Shown here: positions 8,556-45,635 of the stretch, in pieces
Numbering within the stretch: position 1 is the first letter of the stretch
Layout of the letters: the number at the start of each line of letters is the position of its first letter
NCBI GenBank assembly: GCA_963753975.1
Contig: CAVWEH010000005.1
Location: 56,938-120,937 of the forward strand
Direction: 5' to 3'
Length of the DNA stretch: 64,000 nucleotides
Source: an uncultured delta proteobacterium
Lineage (GTDB): Bacteria > Desulfobacterota > Syntrophia > Syntrophales > Smithellaceae
The notes under the pieces: generated by a model
The model's input: the letters and a program-made list of their open reading frames with translations, nothing else
Database searches by the model: none
What the model was told of the DNA's origin: nothing
Made by a program: the position numbers and the translations under genes

Positions 8556-8960
8556 ACCGATTCCAACGTATGACTCTTGTGACCTTTAGTTATGCATTCT
8601 GTTTCTGAAGTTTGGGTCTTATTACAATATAGTACCACTTGGCTTCGCACGTGGTATAATTTCCAATAGCCACCGGCTATTGGATACCACATTATGCTTT
8701 GCATAAAGGATAATTCCACTTGCGCTTCGAGCTTCACTTCATTCGCTCTTAGCGAGTGTCATTAATTCGGCTAAAAAACTTCAACGCGCCTATAGTGACC
8801 TTTAGGTTATTTGCTTTTGAAGTTTTAGTCTCATTACAACTGACAGATATTACTTCACTGCGTTTGTGGAGCACCTCTGTAAGGAGCCGAAGGCTATTTT
8901 CAAAGACGCGACATCCCGTAACGGGATAATATCCGAGTTTCATTAGAATTGGAGTTTCAC
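8556..8960. repeat. composite array of modular hairpin repeat units (family 1)
   Basis: This is a ~400-nt non-coding stretch built from units seen elsewhere in the window. GGATAATTCCACTTGCGCTTCGAGCTTCAC...AGCGAGTGTCATTAA (8708-8766) matches 19935-19992. TTCGGCTAA...TTGAAGTTTTAGTCTCATTAC matches 19779-19830. It ends with GAATTGGAGTTTCAC as at 19898-19912. There is an internal duplication of GTGACCTTTAG..TTTCTGAAGTTTGGGTCTTATTAC (8578-8626 and 8794-8840). Confidence 0.75.
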
Positions 8961-9073
8961 AAAAAATCATAGAAAAACAATACCATTTATTTTTGACAAA
9001 AGAATCCTGCGACATATATTACAGGAAAGGAGTTATGGCGCGTGTATAAAAAAAAGAGAAAGGAGAGAGCATT

Positions 9074-16546: not shown

Positions 16547-16631
16547 ATCTTCCTCATCCCGCGTCGCTTCGCTCCTGGGATAATTCGACCAGCAAGCTTC
16601 AGCGCACTTTGTTTCTGAAGCTTGGGTCTCA
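16547..16631. repeat. family-1 hairpin repeat unit inside the trp operon (trpD-trpC spacer)
   Basis: CATCCCGCGTCGCTTCGCTCCTGGGATAATTC is followed by a perfect 10-bp stem, CAAGCTTCAG (16593-16602) pairing with CTGAAGCTTG (16615-16624), then GGTCTCATTAAC. It matches 19918-19950 plus 19771-19830. Confidence 0.8.
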
Positions 16632-17642
16632 TTAACTGTTGCTCATTTCAATTAGCGCTTGTAATTTCTTTACCGCCGCGCCGCTGTCGATGCATTCGGC
16701 CGCAATCGCGATTCCTTCTTTTAAGTTTTCTGCCTTTTCTCCGGCAACGATCGCCAAAGCAGCGTTCAGCAAAACAATGTTGCGGCAAGCGCCGTTTTTC
16801 CCGGAAAGAACATCTCTGGCAATCCGGGCATTCAGGGCCGGATCGCCGCCACGAATGGCTTCCAGCGGATCAATTCTCCCAAAATAGTCCGTCGGATTAA
16901 TGTTGTAGGTTCGAATAATTCCGTCTTTTAGTTCCGCCACGCGTGTTTCGCTGCTTATCGTGACTTCGTCCAAGCCATCCAAGCCATGAACAATGAAAGC
17001 TCTTTTCGTACCCATATTTTTCAACACATCGGCGAACATCTCGGCGAGTTTCGTATCATAAACGCCCAGAAGCTGCGCGGTTGCTCCGGCCGGATTAGTG
17101 AGCGGCCCCAGCATATTAAATATGGTGCGAATACCGATTTCGCGCCGCGGGCCAATGGCGTATTTCATCGCGCCGTGGAGTTTCGGCGCAAAAAGAAAGC
17201 CGATGCCGATTTGTTGTAGGCATTCTTCGACAATTTCCTGAGGCGCGCTGATATTAACGCCTAAGGCTTCCAGAACATCGGCACTGCCGCAGCCGCTGGA
17301 TACGGCACGATTGCCGTGCTTGGCCACAACAATTCCCGCCGCTGCAGCAACGAAAGCTGTCGTCGTCGATATATTGAAGGTATTTAGGGAATCGCCCCCC
17401 GTGCCGCAGGTATCCAAGATCGTGGTCGCGCAGGCATTCACCCGCGTTGCTTTCTGGCGCATGATGCGCGCCGCGCCGGTCACTTCCTCCACAGTTTCGC
17501 CTTTCATCCGCAATGCTGTAATCAAAGCGGCAATTTGTGCGGGAGTAGCGCTGCCTTCCATAATTTCTTCCATCGCCGCCATCATTTCTGCTTCGCGTAG
17601 ATCGATTTTTTTAACGGCTTTTTCAATCGCTTCTTTGATCAT
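16632..17642 (-). CDS. trpD: anthranilate phosphoribosyltransferase
   Basis: I place the start at [10 protein letters not shown] (ATG 17642), which overlaps the trpG stop as ATGA. The motifs are DTCGTGGDS and GPLTNP. The 56-aa Arg-rich extension in the ORF track is rejected. Confidence 0.9.
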
Positions 17643-19735: not shown

Positions 19736-19774
19736 AATCTTCTCCTTGACCCCATCCCCTGCCTGCGGCGGGGA

Positions 19775-19992
19775 TAATTCGGCTAACAAGTTTCAGTGCA
19801 CTCTGTTTCTGAAACTTGGGCCTCATTAACCACGGACGTGTCGTCCTCCGCTTTGCGGGGTCGTTCAACTATCCAATTCCGCTGTGCTTCGCTTTCGGAA
19901 TTGGAGTTTCACATCCCTCATCGCTTTGCTCCTAGGATAATTCCACTTGCGCTTCAAACTTCGCTGGGCTCGTTTTCAGCGAGTGTCATTAA
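19775..19992. repeat. family-1 modular hairpin repeat (four modules) in the trpE 5' leader
   Basis: It contains GGATAATTCGGCTAAC, the stem CAAGTTTCAG (19787-19796) / CTGAAACTTG (19809-19818) and GGCCTCATTAAC. It also contains CCGCTTTGCGG, the stem CCAATTCCG (19873-19881) / CGGAATTGG (19896-19904), AGTTTCAC, GGATAATTCCACTTGCGCTTC and AGCGAGTGTCATTAA. Confidence 0.8.
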
Positions 19993-27736: not shown

Positions 27737-27830
27737 TAATGAGACTCAAGTTTCAAAAGCGTAGTGAGCCCCAGATTTTAGAAGTGAAGCGTACTGAAAT
27801 CTGTTGGACAAACTATCCCGCAAAGCGGGG
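27737..27830. repeat. family-1 hairpin repeat (inverted orientation) in the trpB2 3' UTR
   Basis: TAATGAGACTCAAGTTTCAAAAGCG..., the stem CAGATTT/AAATCTG, ...CTATCCCGCAAAGCGGGG. The same modules occur at 39594-39650 and in reverse complement at 19775-19860. Confidence 0.7.
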
Positions 27831-31590: not shown

Positions 31591-31640
31591 TACGCTTCGT
31601 CCAGCATGCCCAAGCGTTGCTTTCGGAATCGGAGTTTTAC
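31591..31640. repeat. partial, degenerate family-1 repeat module
   Basis: TACGCTTCG...GCTTTCGGAATCGGAGTTTTAC resembles GCTTCGCTTTCGGAATTGGAGTTTCAC at 19886-19912. Confidence 0.45.
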
Positions 31641-36056: not shown

Positions 36057-37979
36057 CTATTTTACTTCCTCAAAGTCGGCATCTACTACATCATCATCCT
36101 TTTTCCCCGACGCCTGCTGCCCACCGCTTTGCTGCTCTGTCCCGGCACCGGCAGTAGGACCACCTTGACCACCGGAGGTTTTTGCATACATGGCTTCCGC
36201 CAATTTGTGCGAGACATTCATCAAGTCGTCCTGAGCTTTTTTGATGGCTTCAACATTTTCGCCTTCCAAAGCTTTTTTCGCCTTGCTTATTGCTTCTTCG
36301 ATTTTTGCTTTTTCGCCCGCATCTACTTTATCGCCAAATTCCTTAATATTTTTTTCCACGCTGTAAATCATGGAATCGGCCTGATTTCTCGCTTCAATTA
36401 ATTCCTTGCGACGCTTGTCTTCTTCGGCGTGCTGTTCCGCGTCACGCACTAATTTCTGAATTTCTGCTTCACTCAAACCGCTGGAAGCGGTGATTTTGAT
36501 GCTCTGTTCTTTACCGGTACCCAGATCTTTTGCGTTAACATGCACGATACCGTTGGCATCAATATCAAAAGTAACTTCAATTTGAGGTATGCCGCGCGGC
36601 GCCGGTGGTATACCCACCAATTCAAAACGCCCCAAAGTTCTGTTATCAGGCGCCATCTGACGTTCACCCTGAAGCACGTGAATGCTCACCGCCGGCTGAT
36701 TATCGGCAGCTGTCGAAAAAATCTGGCTTTTCTTGCTGGGAATAGTAGTGTTTTTCTCGATAAGCCTGGTCATAACCCCGCCCAGAGTCTCTATACCCAG
36801 AGAAAGCGGAGTAACATCAAGCAGCAATACATCTTTCACATCACCCGCCAAAACTCCGCCCTGAATTGCTGCGCCGACAGCCACAACTTCGTCCGGATTC
36901 ACGCCTTTGTGCGGTTCCTTGCCGAAAATTTCTTTTACCCTCTGTTGAACCCGCGGCATTCTGGTCATTCCACCAACCAAAATAACTTCGTCAATATCTT
37001 TGGTTGATAGATTGGCGTCTTTCAGTGCAGTGCGGCAAGGATCAACTACCTTTTCAATCAATTCTCCCACTAAAGATTCCAGCTTAGCTCTGGAGAGCTT
37101 AATATTCATGTGCTTGGGGCCGGATGCATCGGCGGTAACGAACGGCAGATTGATATCGGTTTCCATCGTAGTGGAAAGTTCCATCTTCGCCTTTTCCGCC
37201 GCTTCTTTGAGCCGTTGCAGCGCCATTTTATCGTTCCTCAAATCAATGCCTTGATCTTTTTTAAATTCTGCGACCAGAAAATCCATTACGCGCTGGTCGA
37301 AATCTTCACCGCCCAAATGCGTATCGCCGTTGGTAGACTTAACCTCAAAGACGCCATCGCCCAATTCCAAAATAGATATATCAAAAGTGCCGCCGCCTAA
37401 ATCAAAGACGGCAATCTTTTCCTCCTTCTTCTTGTCCAAACCATAAGCAAGAGCGGCTGCTGTAGGTTCATTGATGATACGTAATACATTCAGTCCGGCA
37501 ATCTTGCCGGCGTCTTTTGTCGCCTGACGTTGTGAATCGTTAAAATATGCCGGAACGGTAATAACAGCATCCGTTACTTTTTCTCCCAGATAATCCTCCG
37601 CAGTTTGTTTCATCTTCGTCAAAATCATCGCGGATATTTCGGCCGGAGAATAGTTCTTTTTCCTTATTGTAACTTGGGCATCACCGTTCGAAGCTTCCGT
37701 TATCTTGTAAGGAATAATCTTGATATCATACTGAACTTCTTTGGAATTGTATTTTCTACCGATAAGCCTTTTGACGGCGTAGACAGTATTTTCCGAATTC
37801 GTTATGGCCTGCCTTTTCGCCACCTGCCCTACTAACCTTTCGCCGGTTTCCGTTATGGCAACAACGGACGGCGTGGTGCGATTGCCTTCTTGATTGGCGA
37901 TAACGACAGGGTCTCCCCCTTCCATTATGGCTACGCAAGAATTTGTTGTCCCTAAATCAATTCCGATAATTTTTGCCAT
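36057..37979 (-). CDS. dnaK: molecular chaperone DnaK (Hsp70)
   Basis: The motifs are [29 protein letters not shown] and the C-terminal EEVK-type tail. Confidence 0.97.
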
Positions 37980-37990
37980 TTTTTTCCTCC

Positions 37991-38572
37991 TTATTCTCCA
38001 TTGTCTGCTATTTTTTCACATGTCTCATTTTCTTTATTTGTCTTTTTACATACACAAACTTTTGACGGCCTTAAAAGTCTGCCATTGAGCAAATAACCTT
38101 TTGCTATTTCATTAACTATTTTATTTTCTTCATGCTCGTCGCTATGAATCTGCATCATTGCTTCATGAAAGTTGGGGTCGAAATCAGCTCCTGAACTTTC
38201 AATTCTCTCCACGCCGTGCTTTTTGAGACAGCACAAAAGCTGTTCCTGAATTAATTTGATACCATCCTTAAATGCTTCAACATCGGAGCCGCCGGTATGT
38301 TCCATTGCCCTGTCTAAGCTGTCCAAAAAAGGCAAAATATCTCTAATGATCTCTTCGTTGCCATACTTGATTGTATCAGCCTTTTCTTTAGCCGCCCTTT
38401 TTTTGTAATTATCCAATTCCGCAGTTGCACGCAGGTACTTATCATAATTGGCCGCGGCTTCTTTTTCCTTATCTTCTAATTTCGCTTTTAGATCATTTAT
38501 TTCCGAGTGCTCTCCTCCGGCAATAACTTCGTCCGGAGGATGTTTAGCAATGTGTTCTTTTTTTGTTTTCAC
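37991..38572 (-). CDS. grpE: nucleotide exchange factor GrpE
   Basis: It has [18 protein letters not shown] and [14 protein letters not shown]. It lies immediately upstream of dnaK. Confidence 0.9.
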
Positions 38573-38597: not shown

Positions 38598-39182
38598 TTA
38601 TTTTAAGTCAGGCTTTTGAAATAATTTCATATCTACCAGTTCACAGATAGCATGACCGGCTGTAATATGTGTTTCCTGAATGCGCGCCGTACTGGAAGAA
38701 GCTACATTAACGGAAAAATCAACAATTTTCGCAATGCTTCCCCCATCTTTGCCGGTAAAAGCAACTGTTACCAATCCCATCTTCTTGGCCATTTCCAGGC
38801 CTTTCATAACATTGGCGGAATTACCGCTGGTACTGATTCCCCAGGCGACATCCCCCGGTTGTCCTATCGCCCTGATCTGCTTACTGAATATTTCGGAGAA
38901 GTCATAATCATTTCCGATACTCGTAATAACGGATGTATCGGTCGTAAGAGCAATTGCCGGAAGAGGCGGCCTTTCTATTAAAAAGCGGTTAATAAATTCC
39001 GCAGCAATATGTTGTGCATCCGCCGCTGAACCGCCATTGCCAAAAAGTAATATCTTGTTGCCTGATTTCAGTGCAGCAGTTAACACATCAATTATATTAA
39101 TCAGTTTACTTAGGTTCTCATTAATAAAAGCTTCTTTGACGCGGCTGCTTTCTTTAAATATTTTTATTACATGATCCTGCAT
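38598..39182 (-). CDS. gmhA: SIS-domain phosphoheptose isomerase (GmhA/DiaA family)
   Basis: The motifs are LLFGNGGSAADAQHIAAEF and GISTSGNSANV. Confidence 0.8.
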   Translation of the reverse strand: MQDHVIKIFKESSRVKEAFINENLSKLINIIDVLTAALKSGNKILLFGNGGSAADAQHIAAEFINRFLIERPPLPAIALTTDTSVITSIGNDYDFSEIFSKQIRAIGQPGDVAWGISTSGNSANVMKGLEMAKKMGLVTVAFTGKDGGSIAKIVDFSVNVASSSTARIQETHITAGHAICELVDMKLFQKPDLK

Positions 39183-39230
39183 AATTACCTAGCTGAAATC
39201 TTTCATTATTACCTAAAGTAAAGCCAAGCT

Positions 39231-39259
39231 AATATATTTACAGGTATTACTCCTGTCAA
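39231..39259 (-). promoter_or_regulatory. sigma-70-type promoter of the gmhA-grpE-dnaK unit
   Basis: On the minus strand, TTGACA (39259-39254), a 17-nt spacer and TATATT (39236-39231). Confidence 0.5.
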
Positions 39260-39503
39260 GGGTAGCCAGCTGTAATTTTCTTAGCTTTTTAGGGACATAT
39301 TTTAATCACGAGCATACTAATATTGACATCAGACGTCTCCGGAATTTGTCCTTAACGCAGTAATCCCCAGCCCACCTACGTCACACCGGTAATAGATAAC
39401 CTTCAGGTTACTAAGGCCGGTGTCCAGTTATTTTGCCGTTGACCAGTGCAAAAAAAGAATTGAAATAAAGAAATTTGCGAGTATATTTAAGCACATGGTT
39501 TTC

Positions 39504-39650
39504 GTGAAACTCCAATTCCGAAAGCGAAGCCCGACGTATGCTAGGCAAAGCGCAACGGAATTGGTAAGCTGAACGATCCCGCACAGCGGAGGGTAATGAG
39601 ACTCAAACTTCAAAAGCGAAGCTGATAGAAGTTTGTTAGCCGAATTATCC
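39504..39650. repeat. family-1 modular hairpin repeat (inverted orientation) upstream of the NTPase gene
   Basis: GTGAAACTCCAATTCCGAAAGCGAAGC...CGGAATTGG...CCCGCACAGCGGAGGG TAATGAGACTC, then the stem CAAACTTC (39604-39611) / GAAGTTTG (39628-39635), then TTAGCCGAATTATCC. It is the reverse complement of the layout at 19775-19912. Confidence 0.8.
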
Positions 39651-39778
39651 AGTGTAAGCAGGGATATCTTACCCGTGATTAAATGCATTATTTCCATTAA
39701 TGTATTTCTTAAATAGGGCGTTGTTGTCCTTAATTATTACTGACTCTATTTATTTTTATTCGGCCTGAAGGAGGCAAA

Positions 39779-42175
39779 ATGAATAAGCCTTTAAATTCTG
39801 AGAAGAAGGTCATTTTCTTTGCATATAAAGGGCCACAGTCTGGCATGGCGGACAATAATATTGATTCGATCAAAAGAGCTATAACGGAATACAATTCGCA
39901 TCAAGGGGGCTATGTAGCAAAATCATGGGAAGAGTATCGCACAACAACGGCAATTAGTAAGGATGTTTTAACTGCCATTGATAAGTGCGACGTTCTGGTT
40001 GCGGATTTGACGTATTTTAACCACAATGTACTTTTTGAGTTGGGATATGCAATAGCAAAAGGAAAGAATATATTAATAGTTCTCAATGAACACTATAAAC
40101 TAGATGGTTCGGAAACAGCAGGGAAGAAGTATAAAAATTTTACTCTTCGCGGTATTAGATACACACCTTTTGTAAATTATAAGAATATTCATGAAGCATT
40201 ACAAAACAAGCTCTTCGAAGGTGATTTGCTTAATAAGCTTTCTGTAAATGTTAAGAACATAAAACCGAGAAGTACCGATATTTTCTATATTGAAAGTAAA
40301 TTTCCCACTCAGGCTTCTTTAGACCTTTCAAACATAATTCGAGATTTTAAAGATGAAAAGAAACTCACATTGATAAGTGATGATTCAACAGAGGTTAGGT
40401 ATCAACCGTTAAAATGGTATTTGCAAAATCTGCGACAAGCTAAAATGACAATCATCCATTTTCTTGGAGACAAAGTTGAGAATTCCTTTTTTGAGAATGC
40501 ACAGAATTCATTTTTTGCTGGACTGGCATGTGGTTGGGGCAGTGAGGTAATATTATTTGCTCCAGCAAAGTATGACCCGCCGCTTGATTATCATGATATT
40601 CTTGTTCAGTATACATCATCCACTGATCTCGTTAGCAATGCTATAGACTGGCTTAGCGCTAAGTTTAAGGATGTTATACCAAAAATTGATGTAGTTTTGA
40701 AAGAACATGAAACCAACTTAATCAAACTTGGTATAGGCTGTGATATTGCAGAAAATGAAAGCCAGACATTATTAAATTACTTTGTTTACACTGGTTCATA
40801 TCAAGCTGCGTTAAATTATGAGAAGACTTTATTGGTTGGCAGAAAAGGTAGTGGCAAAACAGCAATATACATAAAACTTTCAGACGAGTTGCCGTTAGAT
40901 TTCAAGAATTACGTGGTGAAATTACAACCTGAGTCAGATGAGCTTTTAGATGAAGTAAACTTATCACAACTATATGTTTCTTCCAGAAGAAGTTTTTTTT
41001 CTGCGGTTTGGCAACTAGTTATTTTCTCTAAATTAGCAAATACTGTAAGTGAAAAACTTAAAAACAAATCTCTAAATATAGGCTTTAATGATGCTGAAAA
41101 AGCAATAATTGATTTTGTTGACAACAACAAAGATCTCATACGTCTGAATTTTTTCGGTGTTGTGCGTAATTTGAGTATAAGGGCAAGCGAGAATGCTAAA
41201 GCCAATCCAGCGATAATGGAAACATTATTCCGCGAGTATCTGTCTCCATTAAAACGTATTCTAAATGAATATTTTAACTCAATCGATGAAAAGTTTTATA
41301 GAGTAGTTATCCTGGCGGACAATTTAGACAAAACATGGGATCCAAAGAATGACTTAAGTGTTCAGGTCGAAATGATATTGGCACTATTTGAAATAGAAAA
41401 TAAGATCAGGCACGAATTAATAAGTGACACAAATTCTAAAATTGAAATCAAGCAAATAGTTTTTTTGAGGGAAGACATTTTTAATTATATAAAAAAACAA
41501 TCAATTGAGCCTGATAAACTAACTACAATGTCTCATGAAATTGATTGGGAAAACTATCCATTGTTGTTAAGAGATTTGGTCGAAAATAGATTTGGGCATA
41601 TTTTGAATTTAAAAGATAAACAAGAAATTGAAAAAAGAGCATGGCGTGAATTTTTTAATTTCAAAGAAAAAAAACATCCATATGATTTAATTCTTGAAAT
41701 TGTTACTAAGCGCCCAAGGGATCTTATTTATTTTGTGGCTAAACTATTTGAATCAGCTATAAATAACGACCACAATAAAGTTGACAATGAGGATTTAGAG
41801 TACGCCATTATTAATTATACAGAATTTTTGAATGATAATTTAATTGCCGAGACAAGGGCAGAATTTCCAGAGATTTCCAATATTCTCGGAAAGCTGCAAA
41901 AATATCATGGAGAAAGGTTTGAATATAATCAGTTTACAAAAATACTTGGTGAATTTAAATTAGATCATGCTAAACAACGAAAGTTAATCGAAACATTATT
42001 CGATAAAGGATATATGTTGGGGTACGATGAAAAGACAAATCAGCCCTTCAGTGACATAGAAGTATTAAATGGAAAACTACAAGAAAAAAAATTATTTTTC
42101 TTTCCTAATAAAGTGTATCTTATCGCTCATGCAAAGTACTATTTTATTAAGCATAAATCATCTTCACCTTTTTAA
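39779..42175 (+). CDS. tandem TIR/nucleoside-2-deoxyribosyltransferase-like domains fused to a P-loop NTPase with a helical C-terminal region
   Basis: Domain 1 (aa ~8-150) reads VIFFAYKG...CDVLVADLTYFNHNVLFELGYAIAKGKNILIV, with Glu87 at 40037-40039. Domain 2 (aa ~165-300) repeats the pattern as IIHFLGD...NAQNSFFAGLACGWGSEVILF, with Ala in place of Glu. Walker A GRKGSGKT is at 40838-40861. A Walker-B-like VVILADNLD is at 41303-41329. The C-terminal part has a KRPRDLIYF helix. The RBS is GAAGGAGG. The gene is strongly AT-rich relative to its flanks. Confidence 0.7.
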   Translation: MNKPLNSEKKVIFFAYKGPQSGMADNNIDSIKRAITEYNSHQGGYVAKSWEEYRTTTAISKDVLTAIDKCDVLVADLTYFNHNVLFELGYAIAKGKNILIVLNEHYKLDGSETAGKKYKNFTLRGIRYTPFVNYKNIHEALQNKLFEGDLLNKLSVNVKNIKPRSTDIFYIESKFPTQASLDLSNIIRDFKDEKKLTLISDDSTEVRYQPLKWYLQNLRQAKMTIIHFLGDKVENSFFENAQNSFFAGLACGWGSEVILFAPAKYDPPLDYHDILVQYTSSTDLVSNAIDWLSAKFKDVIPKIDVVLKEHETNLIKLGIGCDIAENESQTLLNYFVYTGSYQAALNYEKTLLVGRKGSGKTAIYIKLSDELPLDFKNYVVKLQPESDELLDEVNLSQLYVSSRRSFFSAVWQLVIFSKLANTVSEKLKNKSLNIGFNDAEKAIIDFVDNNKDLIRLNFFGVVRNLSIRASENAKANPAIMETLFREYLSPLKRILNEYFNSIDEKFYRVVILADNLDKTWDPKNDLSVQVEMILALFEIENKIRHELISDTNSKIEIKQIVFLREDIFNYIKKQSIEPDKLTTMSHEIDWENYPLLLRDLVENRFGHILNLKDKQEIEKRAWREFFNFKEKKHPYDLILEIVTKRPRDLIYFVAKLFESAINNDHNKVDNEDLEYAIINYTEFLNDNLIAETRAEFPEISNILGKLQKYHGERFEYNQFTKILGEFKLDHAKQRKLIETLFDKGYMLGYDEKTNQPFSDIEVLNGKLQEKKLFFFPNKVYLIAHAKYYFIKHKSSSPF

Positions 42176-42197
42176 AGGAGAGAAGTAAGGTTTAAAC

Positions 42198-43055
42198 CTA
42201 GTTGTAGCCCTCATCATAAGCAATCATATCGAGGTGCAATGTAGCAATGTCTTCAACGTCGAGGTTTGGCTCTTCGCTTGATTTGGTTAATTCAATAATT
42301 TTTATATAACGGCGGCACTTATTGCAGACATCTACCCGGTGGTGTTCCTCTCCTTCCACTTCAAAATAAGCCAGGGAATGTTGTTCATCGTTGCCGCAAA
42401 ATGGGCATTTAATCCGGTGAAAATACCATTTAAACCCGCACTGGTGGCAAAACAAATACCGCTTGCCTTCTTCCTCTTCCCTGATTTCACCTATCTTCGG
42501 TTCTTTGCCGCAAATGGGACAGTATCCCTCCGACCAGCCCGACTTGGCTATTATCTCATCGTATTTTTCGGCAATATTTTCTAATTCCGGCCTTAAGCTT
42601 TCCTCGGTAAAAAGATCGATCAAGTCAAGATTTTCCCGAGCTTCGCTGCCGGATGCTAATCCTTCGTTTGCAGCTTCGCCTTCTTCATCACTGCGGTCAA
42701 AAGAAGCGCGAATCGTTTTTTCCCAATCATATTGTTTATCTTTAATGATGCTTATAATTTTTTGCGCCTCTTCCGGCATTCTTTTTTCCACTATGGAAAT
42801 CAAGGAATTAAAATATTGTTTCGGACGCGATAAATCATATTCCTTTCCCGTAATATCAATTAAGGGAAGGCCTCCTTCCATTTTTTGGGTGATTAAATTT
42901 TCTTCGACACTAAAAATGGAATCTTTCATATTCTGGCGGTATTCCTCCCGCAGAATTAAAATATCCGCCAATATATCCAAAAGATCAGTATAATCAGGAT
43001 TCGCGGCTTTGTAATCCTCTATTGTTTTTAAAGACTTTCTCAATGCTACAGCCAT
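42198..43055 (-). CDS. fdhE: formate dehydrogenase accessory protein FdhE-like (four CxxC)
   Basis: The Cys pairs CPICG, CHQCG, CPFCGN and CNKCRRY have FdhE spacing. No fdh structural genes lie in the window. Confidence 0.75.
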   Translation of the reverse strand: MAVALRKSLKTIEDYKAANPDYTDLLDILADILILREEYRQNMKDSIFSVEENLITQKMEGGLPLIDITGKEYDLSRPKQYFNSLISIVEKRMPEEAQKIISIIKDKQYDWEKTIRASFDRSDEEGEAANEGLASGSEARENLDLIDLFTEESLRPELENIAEKYDEIIAKSGWSEGYCPICGKEPKIGEIREEEEGKRYLFCHQCGFKWYFHRIKCPFCGNDEQHSLAYFEVEGEEHHRVDVCNKCRRYIKIIELTKSSEEPNLDVEDIATLHLDMIAYDEGYN

Positions 43056-43228: not shown

Positions 43229-44666
43229 TTAAAAGAAAATAAAAGTGATGATAATAAACAAAACAACTAAAATGGGAATTGAATATTTAAACATGTAGCC
43301 GAAAAAGCTGGGCATCTTCACACCTGCTTCTTCGGCGATAGACTTAACCATAAAATTCGGCGCATTGCCGATATAGGTATTTGCCCCCATGAAGACTGCT
43401 CCCGCGGATATGGCCGCCAGATAAGGAATCTTTTCCACAATCAGGCGGGCAACGGCCTGCGCTTCCGGTATTCCCGGATAAAACTTGCCGATCGCGCCGT
43501 TAAAAAAGGTCAAATATGTGGGAGCATTATCCAAAAAGCTGGAAAGAACTCCCGTAGCCCAAAAATAATGCGCCGGTGTGTTTATTGATTTTATTAACCA
43601 AGCTAACGCTCCGTCTTCGCCTGTTTTCAGAATCGCCAGTGCCGGAATAATAGTTATAAAGATACCGGCAAAGAGATATGCCACTTCCAGAATGGGAGCC
43701 CAACTAAACTCGTTGACTTTTCGGACTTCCTGTCGGGTAAAAATGAGGGATAAAATTCCCATGACAATTAAAACAGCATCTTTGATCAAATTTTCAATGG
43801 ATTGATGGATGCCGAAAATATTTACTTCGCCCAGATTTATTGTTCCGCTGAACAAGACGGCAGCAACGATTCCCGACAGGAATATAAAATTCTGAGCGCC
43901 CTCAATTCTTAGCGGTTCAGATTCCGAACTTTCCCGGCCTGTTTTATCTTCTTTTTTATAGTAGTAAGAATCCAAAATAAAATAAAGCATAAGTAAAACG
44001 ACACTGGCAAACGCCATTTCCGGCAGAATATGCATAGTCCAAAAAAATGGTACTCCATGCAAGAAGCCGAGAAACAAGGGCGGATCGCCCAGCGGCGTCA
44101 GTGCACCGCCAATATTGCTGACCAGAAAAATAAAAAAAACGATCGTGTGCGCCTTATGCACACGCCAGGAATTTGATCGCAAAATCGGCCGGATCAAAAG
44201 CATGGAAGCCCCGGTCGTTCCGATGATCGATGCCAGGATAGTGCCGATCAGCAGGATCAACTGCATTAACAGCAGGCGTTCCTTTCAAAGTGCCTTGGAC
44301 ATAAATGCCGCCCGAGACGGTGAATAAAGCCCACAACAGCAGAATAAAGGGAATATAATCGATAATTATAATGTGAGCTATTTCATGAACGGCGACTTCA
44401 CGGAAAAAATACAAAAAAGGCACGGCGAAGACTAACGCCCAGAAAACGGAGATTTTGGGAAAATGATGATCCCAGAAATGAGGCGCAAATAAGGGAAAAA
44501 GCGCTATGGAAAGTAAAATACCGGCAAACGGAAGAATAGACCACAATGGAAGAATAGTGCCAAGAGTATCATTGTTTATATTTGTATTCCCGGAATAGGC
44601 AAGACTTATTGCGGGAGTAATCAGCAATATAATAATTACTAATAGAATATGACTAAATCGTTTCAA
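43229..44666 (-). pseudogene. ArsB/NhaD-superfamily ion transporter (sodium:proton antiporter-like), interrupted by a frameshift near 44262-44275
   Basis: ORF 44154..44666 (N-terminal TM helices, good up to ...YVQGTLKGTPAVNA) and ORF 43229..44266 (LILLIGTILASIIGTTGASMLLIRP...) overlap in different frames. Together they form one about 470-aa permease. Confidence 0.7.
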
Positions 44667-44973
44667 GGCAATCCGTTAATTTATACTCTCTTTTTTTTTA
44701 ACAAAATAACCTGTTCGCATCATAGCTTTTGCAGGTAAATTGTTTACGAACTTTTGCGCAAATTGAAAATCATTCATTGCTAAAAAAACATTTTTAGATT
44801 CTCAGCATATTGTATTCAAAATATAATTGAATGTTGTATAAATAACTACAAATAATTAAAAAGATTTATATATAAAATCTAATATATAAGTCAACCTTTT
44901 ATGATTAAATTCGATTTAATAGAAACGCACTGGCTGATAATTTATATAATTCATTTCCAATTACTAATAGTTA

Positions 44974-45002
44974 TTGACACCCAACCGCTATGTACTTATA
45001 CT
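44974..45002 (+). promoter_or_regulatory. sigma-70-type promoter of the UPF0316 gene
   Basis: TTGACA (44974-44979), a 17-nt spacer and TATACT (44997-45002). Confidence 0.5.
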
Positions 45003-45032
45003 TTTTTTGATTAAAGGAAGACATAAACAAAA

Positions 45033-45635
45033 ATGGATTTAAGCGTTTTTTATCATTCTGAAATATTTAAGTTAATAGTGATTCCCTTATTGATTTTTCT
45101 GGCTCGTATCTGCGATGTTACGCTGGATACAGCCCGCATCATTTATGTGTCCAGAGGTATGAAATTTTTAGCCCCTATAATTGGATTCTTCGAAGTTCTT
45201 ATCTGGCTTTTATCCATCACGCAAATAATGAATAACCTGACCAATGTTGTTTATTACATTGCCTATGCCGGCGGTTTTGCCATGGGAAACTTTATCGGCA
45301 TTTACATCGAAGAGAAAATGGCTATCGGCACCGTTATCATTAGAATTATTACCCAAAAAGCAGCAGCGGATTTGGTGGAATATCTTAAATGCGACGGTTA
45401 CGGAGTAACCTATATAGACGCATATGGAACTCTCGGGCCGGTAAAGGTGGTTTATACCATTATCAAAAGAAGAGATGTAAGTCGTGTCATCGATATAATC
45501 AGGAAATTTAATCCAGCGGCTTTTTTTACCATCGAAGATATTCGTTCTGTTCGTGAAGGAGTTTTTAGAAAAAAGAGGGAGTTGAAAAAATCATCTGTTT
45601 TCCGGTTGAAAAAGAAATATAAGCATCACGATTAA
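45033..45635 (+). CDS. UPF0316 / DUF2179 family membrane protein
   Basis: It has three N-terminal TM helices (RICDVTLDTARIIYVSRG) and a C-terminal DUF2179-like domain (GVTYIDAYG...FFTIEDIRSV). Confidence 0.75.
   Translation: MDLSVFYHSEIFKLIVIPLLIFLARICDVTLDTARIIYVSRGMKFLAPIIGFFEVLIWLLSITQIMNNLTNVVYYIAYAGGFAMGNFIGIYIEEKMAIGTVIIRIITQKAAADLVEYLKCDGYGVTYIDAYGTLGPVKVVYTIIKRRDVSRVIDIIRKFNPAAFFTIEDIRSVREGVFRKKRELKKSSVFRLKKKYKHHD

Follow-up and report, generated by a model that had tools for sequence, protein, structure and literature searches.

What is the single large gene that interrupts the short gap between fdhE and the gmhA–grpE–dnaK cluster in a Smithellaceae bacterium, and what does its product do? 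The gene, X798, is an open reading frame (ORF) of 798 aa in a 64,000-nt stretch of contig CAVWEH010000005.1 (assembly GCA_963753975.1), referred to below as the window. Its product is predicted to join two consecutive domains of nucleoside 2-deoxyribosyltransferase (NDT)-like or TIR-like fold to a P-loop ATPase. We propose that X798 is probably a horizontally acquired standalone conflict or anti-phage gene, in which an NTPase switch would control a nucleotide-cleaving effector. That it is a conflict or defence protein of some kind we hold with reasonable confidence, and any particular trigger or substrate is put forward only tentatively. A preliminary description of this DNA, made from the letters alone, had drawn attention to the ORF, its strong ribosome-binding site and the 22 nt between its stop codon (TAA) and the end of the convergent fdhE-like ORF; all of these were exact as described.

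X798 differs from its surroundings in base composition. Its GC content is 0.325 against a window mean of 0.450 (standard deviation 0.046; 2.4-kb windows), and it is the lowest-GC 2.4-kb stretch of the entire 64 kb, in agreement with the earlier remark that it is much more AT-rich than either flank. Because a 2.4-kb ORF at 32.5% GC is accompanied by hundreds of full-length homologues, X798 is not a chance ORF. A Shine–Dalgarno sequence lies 4 nt 5′ of its ATG and is kept in the nearest relative. A scan for sigma-70 promoters and terminators gave counts no higher than in shuffled sequence, and for this reason no promoter is claimed for X798. No Rfam family matched anywhere in the window, and among public sequencing runs two matched, each with 5% of words.

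Scanning with the FdhE protein placed the host in the Smithellaceae, as a Smithella-like bacterium, and returned 43 related loci. By tblastn, these loci keep the order arsB-like gene, fdhE and then gmhA–grpE–dnaK, and none of the 43 contains an X798 homologue. At some of them the site is empty (L009, L045): window positions 38902–39309 and 42194–42500 are collinear with L009, and 2884 bp separate them here versus 179 bp in L009. The right junction of the island fell at 42186–42194 in five comparisons, and the left junction varied with the relative (39305–39310, 39460 or 39595). X798 is the only substantial ORF in the island, in which no transposase, integrase or resolvase gene was found, so that the view of the locus as a single-gene island was borne out. 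The closest known relative of the gene, P0002, is 80% identical at the protein level and lies on a 3.2-kb metagenome contig (L064). DNA homology to L064 extends from the Shine–Dalgarno sequence to 2 nt past the stop codon, and the flanks are unrelated; since the similarity is confined to the gene, the moved unit was the bare gene. X798 was thus acquired by horizontal transfer.

By sequence, the first of the two N-terminal domains (module 1) is of the NDT/DNPH1 type rather than a TIR domain. It passes the Pfam model Nuc_deoxyrib_tr (PF05014) marginally (E 6.6e-7; 29.9 bits, cutoff 28.8; aa 51–108). Among 49 family members, 39 matched PF05014 and only 3 matched TIR families at E≤0.01; in X798 itself, TIR models (PF13676, PF10137 and related ones) remained below threshold, and CAP12-PCTIR_TIR scored 15.3 bits against a cutoff of 24.7. 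A family profile compared with PDB sequences gave weak matches to DNPH1/Rcl and NDTs (E 0.1–1.5), together with Ras P-loop matches, and in this alignment E87 coincides with the Glu in "GYELG" of DNPH1/Rcl, the residue that acts as catalytic nucleophile in NDT and Rcl/DNPH1 enzymes. Across the 49 aligned family sequences, which are 39–80% identical to the window protein, D76, N83, V84, F86, E87, G89 and A91 are invariant, N81, H82, L88 and Y90 are nearly so, and the segment F13-F14-A15-Y16 is invariant or nearly invariant. The retention of E87 in an FELGYA motif, noted at the outset, therefore holds across the family. This degree of conservation is that expected of an active enzyme, and module 1 is predicted to be catalytically competent.

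Module 2 lacks the catalytic Glu. It had no match in PDB sequences, and a Pfam search with 34 module-2 sequences gave scattered chance matches only. A dedicated AlphaFold2 (AF2) model (mean predicted local distance difference test score (pLDDT) 84.7) was most similar in Foldseek to the Bacillus NDT 6evs (E 6e-5), followed by Caenorhabditis elegans TIR-1, the CMP N-glycosidase BcmB and the Trypanosoma brucei NDT; TIR-STING, the SPARTA TIR, SARM1, plant TIRs and DNPH1 were also matched, with template-modelling (TM) scores of about 0.5. For the TIR structures, E ranged from 2e-4 to 5e-3 and TM was about 0.5; NDT and BcmB matched equally well, so the TIR-like flavodoxin fold predicted by the model denotes a fold class only. 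Of the tandem TIR/NDT-like modules that had been proposed, the NDT assignment of module 1 and the NDT/TIR fold of module 2 stood, and a TIR identity at the sequence level did not. An hhalign comparison of the two modules aligned only 18 columns (E 0.0057, probability 6%), pairing LFELGYAIAKGKNILIVL in module 1 with SFFAGLACGWGSEVILFA in module 2. This alignment is suggestive of a duplication and no proof of one; the shared fold of the two modules is argued from the fold search instead. It places G89 and G248 in register, so that E87 corresponds to residue 246, a position occupied by Y, F, L or W across the family. The absence of an acidic residue at this position had been correctly anticipated; the equivalent residue is not Ala247, as had been thought. 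Module 2 nevertheless retains invariant residues of its own in the 49 sequences (Y214, H227, N240, G248, A261, P268 and Y271) and two near-invariant ones (E205 and D270), and is therefore under selection for another role, either as a pseudo-enzyme partner or as a ligand-binding domain.

The two Rossmann-like lobes of the N-terminus could instead form a GT-B glycosyltransferase or a two-lobed module resembling periplasmic binding proteins, a reading suggested by weak whole-protein Foldseek matches to FUT9, GtfA and LacI/ribose-binding proteins (E 2e-3 to 1e-2) and by weak matches to glycosyltransferases among viral structures. The TM scores of these matches are only 0.09–0.28 with high root-mean-square deviations, whereas module 1 scores above the Pfam cutoff for NDT and has an intact catalytic motif, and module 2 by itself matches NDT and TIR structures best. 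We regard this reading as exceedingly improbable and rejected it, the search against viral structures having yielded nothing more convincing than weak two-lobed glycosyltransferase matches. Profile and structure searches thus place the N-terminal modules within the TIR/NDT/flavodoxin-like clade to which they had been provisionally assigned.

The remainder of the protein is largely an ATPase. NCBIfam model NF047389 ("P-loop ATPase, Sll1717 family") matched X798 with E 2.8e-64 (217.9 bits, cutoff 75) and matched 49 of 49 family members, and phrog_13260 matched the same region (E 8.6e-25). In the AF2 model of full-length X798 (mean pLDDT 85.6; predicted TM score (pTM) 0.60), the Walker A motif GRKGSGKT follows strand 349–354; G354, K356, G357, G359 and K360 are invariant in the 49 sequences. 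The Walker B motif ends strand 506–513 with D514, and D514, L516 and D517 are invariant. The two motifs, whose unusual distance had been remarked on, are 154 residues apart because of an insertion of about 120 aa, modelled as all helices between strand 377–382 and strand 506–513. Two further motifs are conserved: R564-x-D566, with L563, R564, D566 and I567 invariant, is a candidate sensor-1 or arginine-finger region, and RPRD in the helical lid (P646, R647 and D648 invariant) is a candidate sensor 2 by likeness to the sensor-2 arginine of ORC/Cdc6. The C-terminal region looks winged-helix-like in its helix/hairpin pattern, modelled secondary structure being the sole basis for this likeness.

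In a Foldseek search with the whole protein, the best match was the TIR-NLR protein RPP1 (E 1.1e-4, TM about 0.2), the third was the DNA-bound Tn7-family AAA+ protein TnsC (E 3.4e-4, TMt 0.47), and Drosophila ORC1, Cdc6 and proteasomal Rpt AAA+ subunits were also retrieved (TnsC, ORC1 and Cdc6 at E 3e-4 to 2e-3). The Pfam ORC-CDC6-like model PF24389 was matched by 9/49 members, of which P0045 scored 27.8 bits (cutoff 27), and STAND models were matched below threshold (nSTAND3 in 12/49, nSTAND5 in 4/49 and NB-ARC in 1/49). Pfam detected no TPR, LRR or WD40 sensor in X798 or the 49 members, and a short alpha/beta region closes the model, at aa 798. From these profile and model comparisons, we read the ATPase module as a putative AAA+ domain of the ORC/Cdc6/STAND neighbourhood.

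A search of about 5.8 billion proteins with full-length X798 returned 245 relatives, mostly of 780–810 aa. Among the best 120, almost all were 775–836 aa long with 93–100% query coverage, and about ten were shorter or partial. An exhaustive search with the tandem N-terminus (aa 1–318) against 1.84 billion cluster representatives (clusters at 50% identity) gave 732 clusters at E≤1e-3, and 339 when the limit was E≤1e-10. Of the best 150, nearly all had lengths of 766–813 aa and both modules matched in one N-terminal stretch; the shorter members look like fragments. This nearly uniform length and module order indicate that the architecture is stereotyped and widespread. Homologues were found in Ignavibacteriales, Sedimentisphaerales, Planctomycetes, Elusimicrobia, Nitrospirota and other taxa, as well as in Caldithrix abyssi, Turneriella parva, Leptospira and Termititenax. 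Proteins built in this way are also encoded on plasmids of Bacillus mycoides (786 aa), Leptolyngbya boryana (785 aa), Mesorhizobium (766 aa) and Leptospira noguchii (780 aa). A tblastn search of phage genomes found only two Klebsiella phage records, at 22.6% identity, and we found no literature on "Sll1717".

The Sll1717-family ATPase also occurs by itself, in Planococcus (477 aa). On the Klebsiella pneumoniae plasmid pTK421_3 (L054, 4965–7061), a 698-aa member with an unassigned C-terminal extension of about 225 aa directly follows a Tn3-family transposon resolvase and adjoins a NotI-type restriction–modification (RM) system and a RelE/ParE toxin–antitoxin pair. Plasmids of Klebsiella, Escherichia, Enterobacter and Citrobacter made up 195 of the 225 matching records, and this 698-aa ATPase appears to be an unstudied passenger gene common on clinical plasmids.

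We compared the gene neighbourhoods of 13 homologues by all-against-all blastp of 23 neighbouring proteins (E 1e-3); no match was obtained, and no neighbour is shared among the contexts. In 13/13 contexts, the gene had a GC content 3.5 to 14 points lower than its flanks. Many of the neighbours are defence or mobile-element genes: a ThsB-type TIR, SLATT and an rve transposase in Turneriella; transposases, integrase fragments, DUF3800 and Phd/ParE in Caldithrix; a resolvase immediately upstream and NADase_transloc in L051; an MmeI-type RM methyltransferase, DndB, DUF5131 and RhuM in L059 (Ignavibacteriales-type contigs); DUF4917/SIR2_2 in L062; HEPN/Toprim-associated, RES, IS91 and integrase genes on the Mesorhizobium plasmid; and a group II intron reverse transcriptase with an HNH endonuclease in L058. 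In L050 and L052, the homologue is a lone insertion among housekeeping genes only. A check proposed at the outset was whether homologues sit in variable defence islands; RM, toxin–antitoxin, TIR, SIR2 or transposase genes are often beside them, though not in these two contexts. The pattern is that of a conflict gene which is mobile and stands alone, and it runs counter to fixed housekeeping synteny.

These comparisons also bear on a metabolic role, in which X798 would be an ATPase-regulated nucleotide-salvage or sanitising enzyme of the NDT/DNPH1 type with no part in conflict. The best scores of module 1 are indeed to genuine metabolic NDT/DNPH1 enzymes, and some homologues are flanked solely by housekeeping genes. 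Yet the gene is missing from 43/43 close host relatives, is patchily distributed over phyla, is always poorer in GC than its flanks, and is found in a variable hotspot, on plasmids, and frequently beside defence or mobile-element genes. This makes a purely metabolic role very improbable. Fixed housekeeping synteny, named with the initial proposal as a finding that would refute it, was rejected on the absence of the gene from the related loci and the lack of any neighbour shared by the 13 contexts.

Is this arrangement a known defence system? No PADLOC-DB v2 model was matched by X798 over its full length or at threshold; partial, weak matches were obtained with PDC-M28C (1.3e-5, aa 339–598), BrxF (5.3e-5, P-loop only) and a TIR effector (2.6e-4, aa 57–107), and in the family the candidate PDC-M28C model was matched by 27/49 members and the TIR effector by 14/49. 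NCBIfam release 20 gave X798 the function-less Sll1717 name, with no defence model at threshold. In the resources searched, we did not find the tandem NDT-like architecture described, named or tested as a defence system; the family is already labelled in databases, as an anonymous ATPase family. The initial impression that this is not a named system thus agrees with the searches.

The closest enzymatic counterparts of the N-terminus are the NDT/DNPH1 enzymes (PF05014; "DrHyd" in Aravind's TIR-DrHyd-SLOG class). Module 1, above the Pfam threshold, shares with them a strand-loop-helix ending in Glu, in the motif x-F-E-L-G-Y-A versus G-Y-E-L-G-R-A in DNPH1, and module 2 has the same predicted fold. 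Metabolic NDT/DNPH1 enzymes, however, are single-domain homo-oligomers, whereas X798 carries a putative active and inactive tandem fused to an ATPase of about 480 aa. NDT-like effectors of retrons also act in defence and need dimerisation, and that of Ec86 depletes adenine derivatives (10.1101/2023.08.16.553469). The effector of Ec86 (Eco1), which acts in abortive infection, is an NDT-like N-glycosidase with a catalytic Glu, as is predicted for module 1, and it depends on the pairing of NDT domains. It is controlled by a reverse transcriptase and msDNA, whereas control of X798 would come from the fused ATPase. The ORF list and the Rfam scan of the window revealed neither a reverse transcriptase gene nor a retron noncoding RNA gene in the island; because such partner genes (reverse transcriptase and noncoding RNA; ThsA and ThsB) are missing, X798 is not a retron or Thoeris component.

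In domain order, X798 resembles the TIR-NTPase sensors (TIR-type Avs/AVAST, bacterial NACHT and TIR-STAND proteins, and plant TNLs such as RPP1), in which an effector precedes an oligomerising P-loop NTPase. Like X798, these are single genes that spread horizontally, and RPP1 was the best whole-protein Foldseek match. Unlike them, X798 has no TPR, LRR or WD40 region, and its effector is duplicated and NDT-type by sequence. It probably falls outside the STAND class, having no repeat sensor and only sub-threshold profile matches, and outside the TIR families because its scores lie below their sequence thresholds. Of the anti-phage architecture of TIR effector and NTPase invoked at the outset, the likeness remains, and membership in STAND or TIR families was not supported; Avs and NLR proteins are an analogy for X798.

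Two further groups of ATPases are relevant. DS-41 ("AAA2", WP_033812887.1) is a single-gene anti-phage ATPase of E. coli, predicted by DefensePredictor and validated with phages (PMC13092281). Its model NF053860 (DS41_1_antiphage) gave sub-threshold matches in 11/49 family members (best E 3.2e-13) and in several plasmid relatives; the best score seen, in plasmid relatives, was 53.9 bits against a cutoff of 370, and X798 itself had no match at E≤1. With 448 positions, this model is too short to hold the N-terminal NDT-like pair of about 300 aa. On these sequence comparisons, X798 is not a member of the DS-41 family, which appears to be a distant relative of its ATPase only. AAA+ proteins belonging to the Orc/Cdc6 family occur commonly in conflict systems, sometimes as fusions to TIR domains (PMC10853773), and RdrA of RADAR, a Cdc6-like protein, has an insertion that separates Walker A (K82) from Walker B (D221) (PMC9994260). 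X798 may resemble such conflict ATPases (TnsC/MuB, RADAR RdrA and SspC) in its large Walker A–Walker B insertion and winged-helix-like C-terminus, both known here from modelled secondary structure only. PADLOC RdrA models did not match X798 at E≤1; RADAR needs RdrB and Tn7 needs TnsAB, whereas X798 has no partner gene and has its own NCBIfam model (Sll1717).

How might such a protein act? We infer that X798 is most likely an abortive-infection-type standalone defence protein. At rest, it would be a monomer or low-order oligomer with the N-glycosidase held inactive. The ATPase module would sense an infection cue, the likeliest being foreign nucleic acid, to which the helical insertion and the winged-helix-like region would bind in the manner of AAA+ proteins of the ORC/Cdc6/TnsC type. 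TnsC, ORC and Cdc6, its closest counterparts in structure, bind DNA. Alternatively, the inactive module 2 could bind the cue, which would then be a ligand derived from a nucleotide. ATP-dependent oligomerisation would then gather or rearrange the N-terminal domains and thereby activate module 1, with module 2 possibly standing in, within the same chain, for the second subunit that NDT-type enzymes require. Module 1 would hydrolyse the N-glycosidic bond of an essential nucleotide (NAD+, a (deoxy)nucleoside monophosphate or adenine nucleotides), and depletion of that nucleotide pool would stop growth ahead of phage release. Module 2 is a possible built-in partner because NDT enzymes and the Ec86 effector need paired NDT domains, and a possible ligand binder because the sensing of nucleotides has been ascribed to inactive members of the TIR-DrHyd-SLOG class (PMC9503650).

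The latter property also underlies a different account, in which X798 would be the effector half of a signalling pathway and module 2 would receive a nucleotide signal produced in another part of the cell, either a second messenger or a product of damage; X798 would then answer to that signal and not detect phage itself. Besides the precedent of inactive domains of this class, module 2 has kept polar residues (H227, N240, Y214 and Y271, and the near-invariant E205 and D270) despite the loss of the Glu, and a recent preprint reports a defence module that m6-dAMP triggers. A gene for a signal-producing enzyme (CD-NTase, ThsB-type TIR or cyclase) was, however, not conserved near the homologues in the 13 contexts, and a ThsB-type TIR was nearby in one of them only. 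We consider this account quite unlikely.

Several observations weigh against a standalone defence protein with an NTPase switch. For every member of this architecture, the defence function is deduced from context, and the homologues in L050 and L052 have no other defence gene nearby. X798 has no repeat-type sensor domain, which makes its trigger a guess. Enzymes of the NDT superfamily act variously on nucleosides, deoxynucleoside monophosphates, CMP or NAD+. The pTM of 0.60 leaves the domain arrangement, and hence the pseudo-dimer idea, unestablished. The absence of a PADLOC or NCBIfam defence match at threshold also counts on this side, and, since the ATPase family includes a PHROG family and transposon-borne copies, it may have a role in mobile elements.

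In that last case, X798 would serve a mobile element, in the choice of transposition targets or in the maintenance or addiction of a plasmid or transposon, with the NDT-like domain as a toxin or anti-defence enzyme. The place of TnsC among the Foldseek matches fits such a role, as do the resolvase immediately upstream of the L051 homologue, the plasmid-borne relatives, the PHROG match of the ATPase and the Sll1717-family relative directly after a Tn3-family resolvase, a type of locus that recurs on many of the more than 190 enterobacterial plasmids matched. The island in the window, on the other hand, contains no transposase, integrase or resolvase gene, most homologue contexts have no adjoining transposase, and the neighbours vary around an unchanging architecture. 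Because defence genes are commonly the cargo of transposons and plasmids, carriage by such elements does not separate the two possibilities. We judge service to a mobile element decidedly unlikely.

If X798 is indeed a defence protein as predicted, an abundant standalone family, with at least 339 clusters in many phyla and on plasmids, has been missed by current catalogues; an NDT-type N-glycosidase would join the effectors directly controlled by an AAA+/ORC-like switch, and a natural active/inactive tandem would be at hand for studying how domain pairing gates TIR/NDT-class enzymes. A bolder version, which we think unlikely, is that X798 would be the first member to be recognised of a large cross-phylum family of one-protein immune sensors, in which an ORC/Cdc6-like ATPase would detect foreign nucleic acid directly through its enlarged helical insertion and winged-helix-like region and would switch on a pseudo-dimer of one active and one dead NDT-type domain attacking deoxynucleotides, adenine nucleotides or DNA bases and not NAD+. 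Its depletion chemistry and activation logic would then be unlike those of TIR-STAND proteins and retron NDT effectors.

Table 1. Positions of X798, its predicted domains and motifs, and surrounding features in the window
Feature	Position	Strand	Basis
X798, 798-aa ORF, ATG start	39779..42175	+	ORF list, 245 homologues, AF2 model
Shine–Dalgarno sequence AAGGAGG	39768..39774 (GGAGG 39770–39774)	+	read from sequence
Module 1, aa 1–157, predicted NDT/DNPH1-like N-glycosidase domain	39779..40249	+	Pfam, family hits, PDB profile alignment
Putative active-site motif D76-L-T-Y-F-N81-H82-N83-V84-L-F86-E87-L88-G89-Y90-A91	40004..40051	+	49-sequence conservation
Module 2, aa 158–300, predicted flavodoxin-like TIR/NDT fold without catalytic Glu	40250..40678	+	AF2 model, Foldseek
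Sll1717-family P-loop ATPase region, aa 320–746	40736..42016	+	NCBIfam, phrog_13260, Foldseek
Walker A GRKGSGKT, aa 354–361	40838..40861	+	conservation; model
Helical insertion, aa 383–505	40925..41293	+	model secondary structure
Walker B V-V-I-L-A-D514-N-L-D517	41303..41329	+	conservation; model
F-L-R564-x-D566-I motif, end of strand 554–564	41456..41482	+	invariant residues
R645-P646-R647-D648 motif, helical lid	41711..41722	+	invariant residues
C-terminal alpha/beta region, aa 700–798	41876..42172	+	model: helices 716–724 and 730–742, strands 746–750 and 755–757
Minimal cassette shared with L064, 82.4% DNA identity	39769..42177	+	blastn
Island, segment variable versus empty site	39310..42193	.	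blastn versus L009
Dispersed intergenic repeat copy upstream of X798	39504..39650	.	blastn within window, four-copy alignment
dnaK	36057–37979	-	flank of X798
grpE	37991–38572	-	flank of X798
gmhA-like gene	38598–39182	-	flank of X798
fdhE-like gene	42198–43055	-	flank of X798, convergent

The locus documents the fdhE–gmhA gap as a variable hotspot of the Smithellaceae in which bare gene cassettes are exchanged. In many genomes this gap measures about 310–520 bp, for example 313 bp in L009, whose FdhE is 95% identical; in more distant Smithella relatives (L011, L024, L043 and other loci), it is about 1.7 kb long and holds three Hsp20 genes. The "empty" site of L009 (10863–11041) contains a C-terminal remnant of Hsp20 and a terminator hairpin; an ancestral heat-shock cluster therefore eroded before new cargo came. 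The gap holds dapF in L007 and L008, with a fragment of an AAA_13 gene also in L008, and Hsp20 genes plus a SIR2 gene in L032. This stand-alone SIR2-family gene (L032, 11500–12321; 273 aa, Pfam SIR2 E 9e-46), from a Smithella metagenome-assembled genome (MAG), could encode a housekeeping deacetylase or a defence SIR2. At the site equivalent to window positions 39596–42186, L006 (FdhE 97% identical; Smithellaceae MAG SPRUCE 595) carries a different cargo of 4.5 kb with a GC content of 0.348 (L006, 10856–15350). The proteins encoded there are a radical-SAM/B12-binding protein (371 aa), one of 131 aa and a GHKL HATPase_c_3 ATPase (543 aa), and this cargo may be another defence candidate.

The repeat that had been reported upstream of X798 proved to be a real dispersed repeat. 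This copy probably lies outside the gene cassette; L006, with its different cargo, is homologous to the window partway into the repeat, up to 39595. Further copies are at about 19772–19912 (-), 8763–8965 (-), 16578–16634 (-), 27737–27764 (+) and 31619–31640 (-). The family is about 140 bp long with conserved cores GTGAAACTCCAATTCCGAAAGCG ... TAATGAGAC.CAA.. TTCA.AA ... TTAGCCGAATTATCC, and had no match in Rfam. A miniature inverted-repeat transposable element, a repetitive extragenic palindromic (REP)-like element and a structured RNA are candidates for its nature.

Beyond fdhE, overlapping ORFs of 345 aa (43229–44266) and 170 aa (44154–44666) lie in different frames on the minus strand at 43229–44666. 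They look like a single ArsB/NhaD-type membrane-transporter gene split by a frameshift, for which either a pseudogene or an error of assembly could account; the ArsB/NhaD-type protein likewise matches L045 in several pieces by tblastn. The window has a second AT-rich stretch (44500–45250), with a GC content of 0.28, within and next to the intergenic region upstream of a 200-aa membrane-protein ORF (45033–45635).

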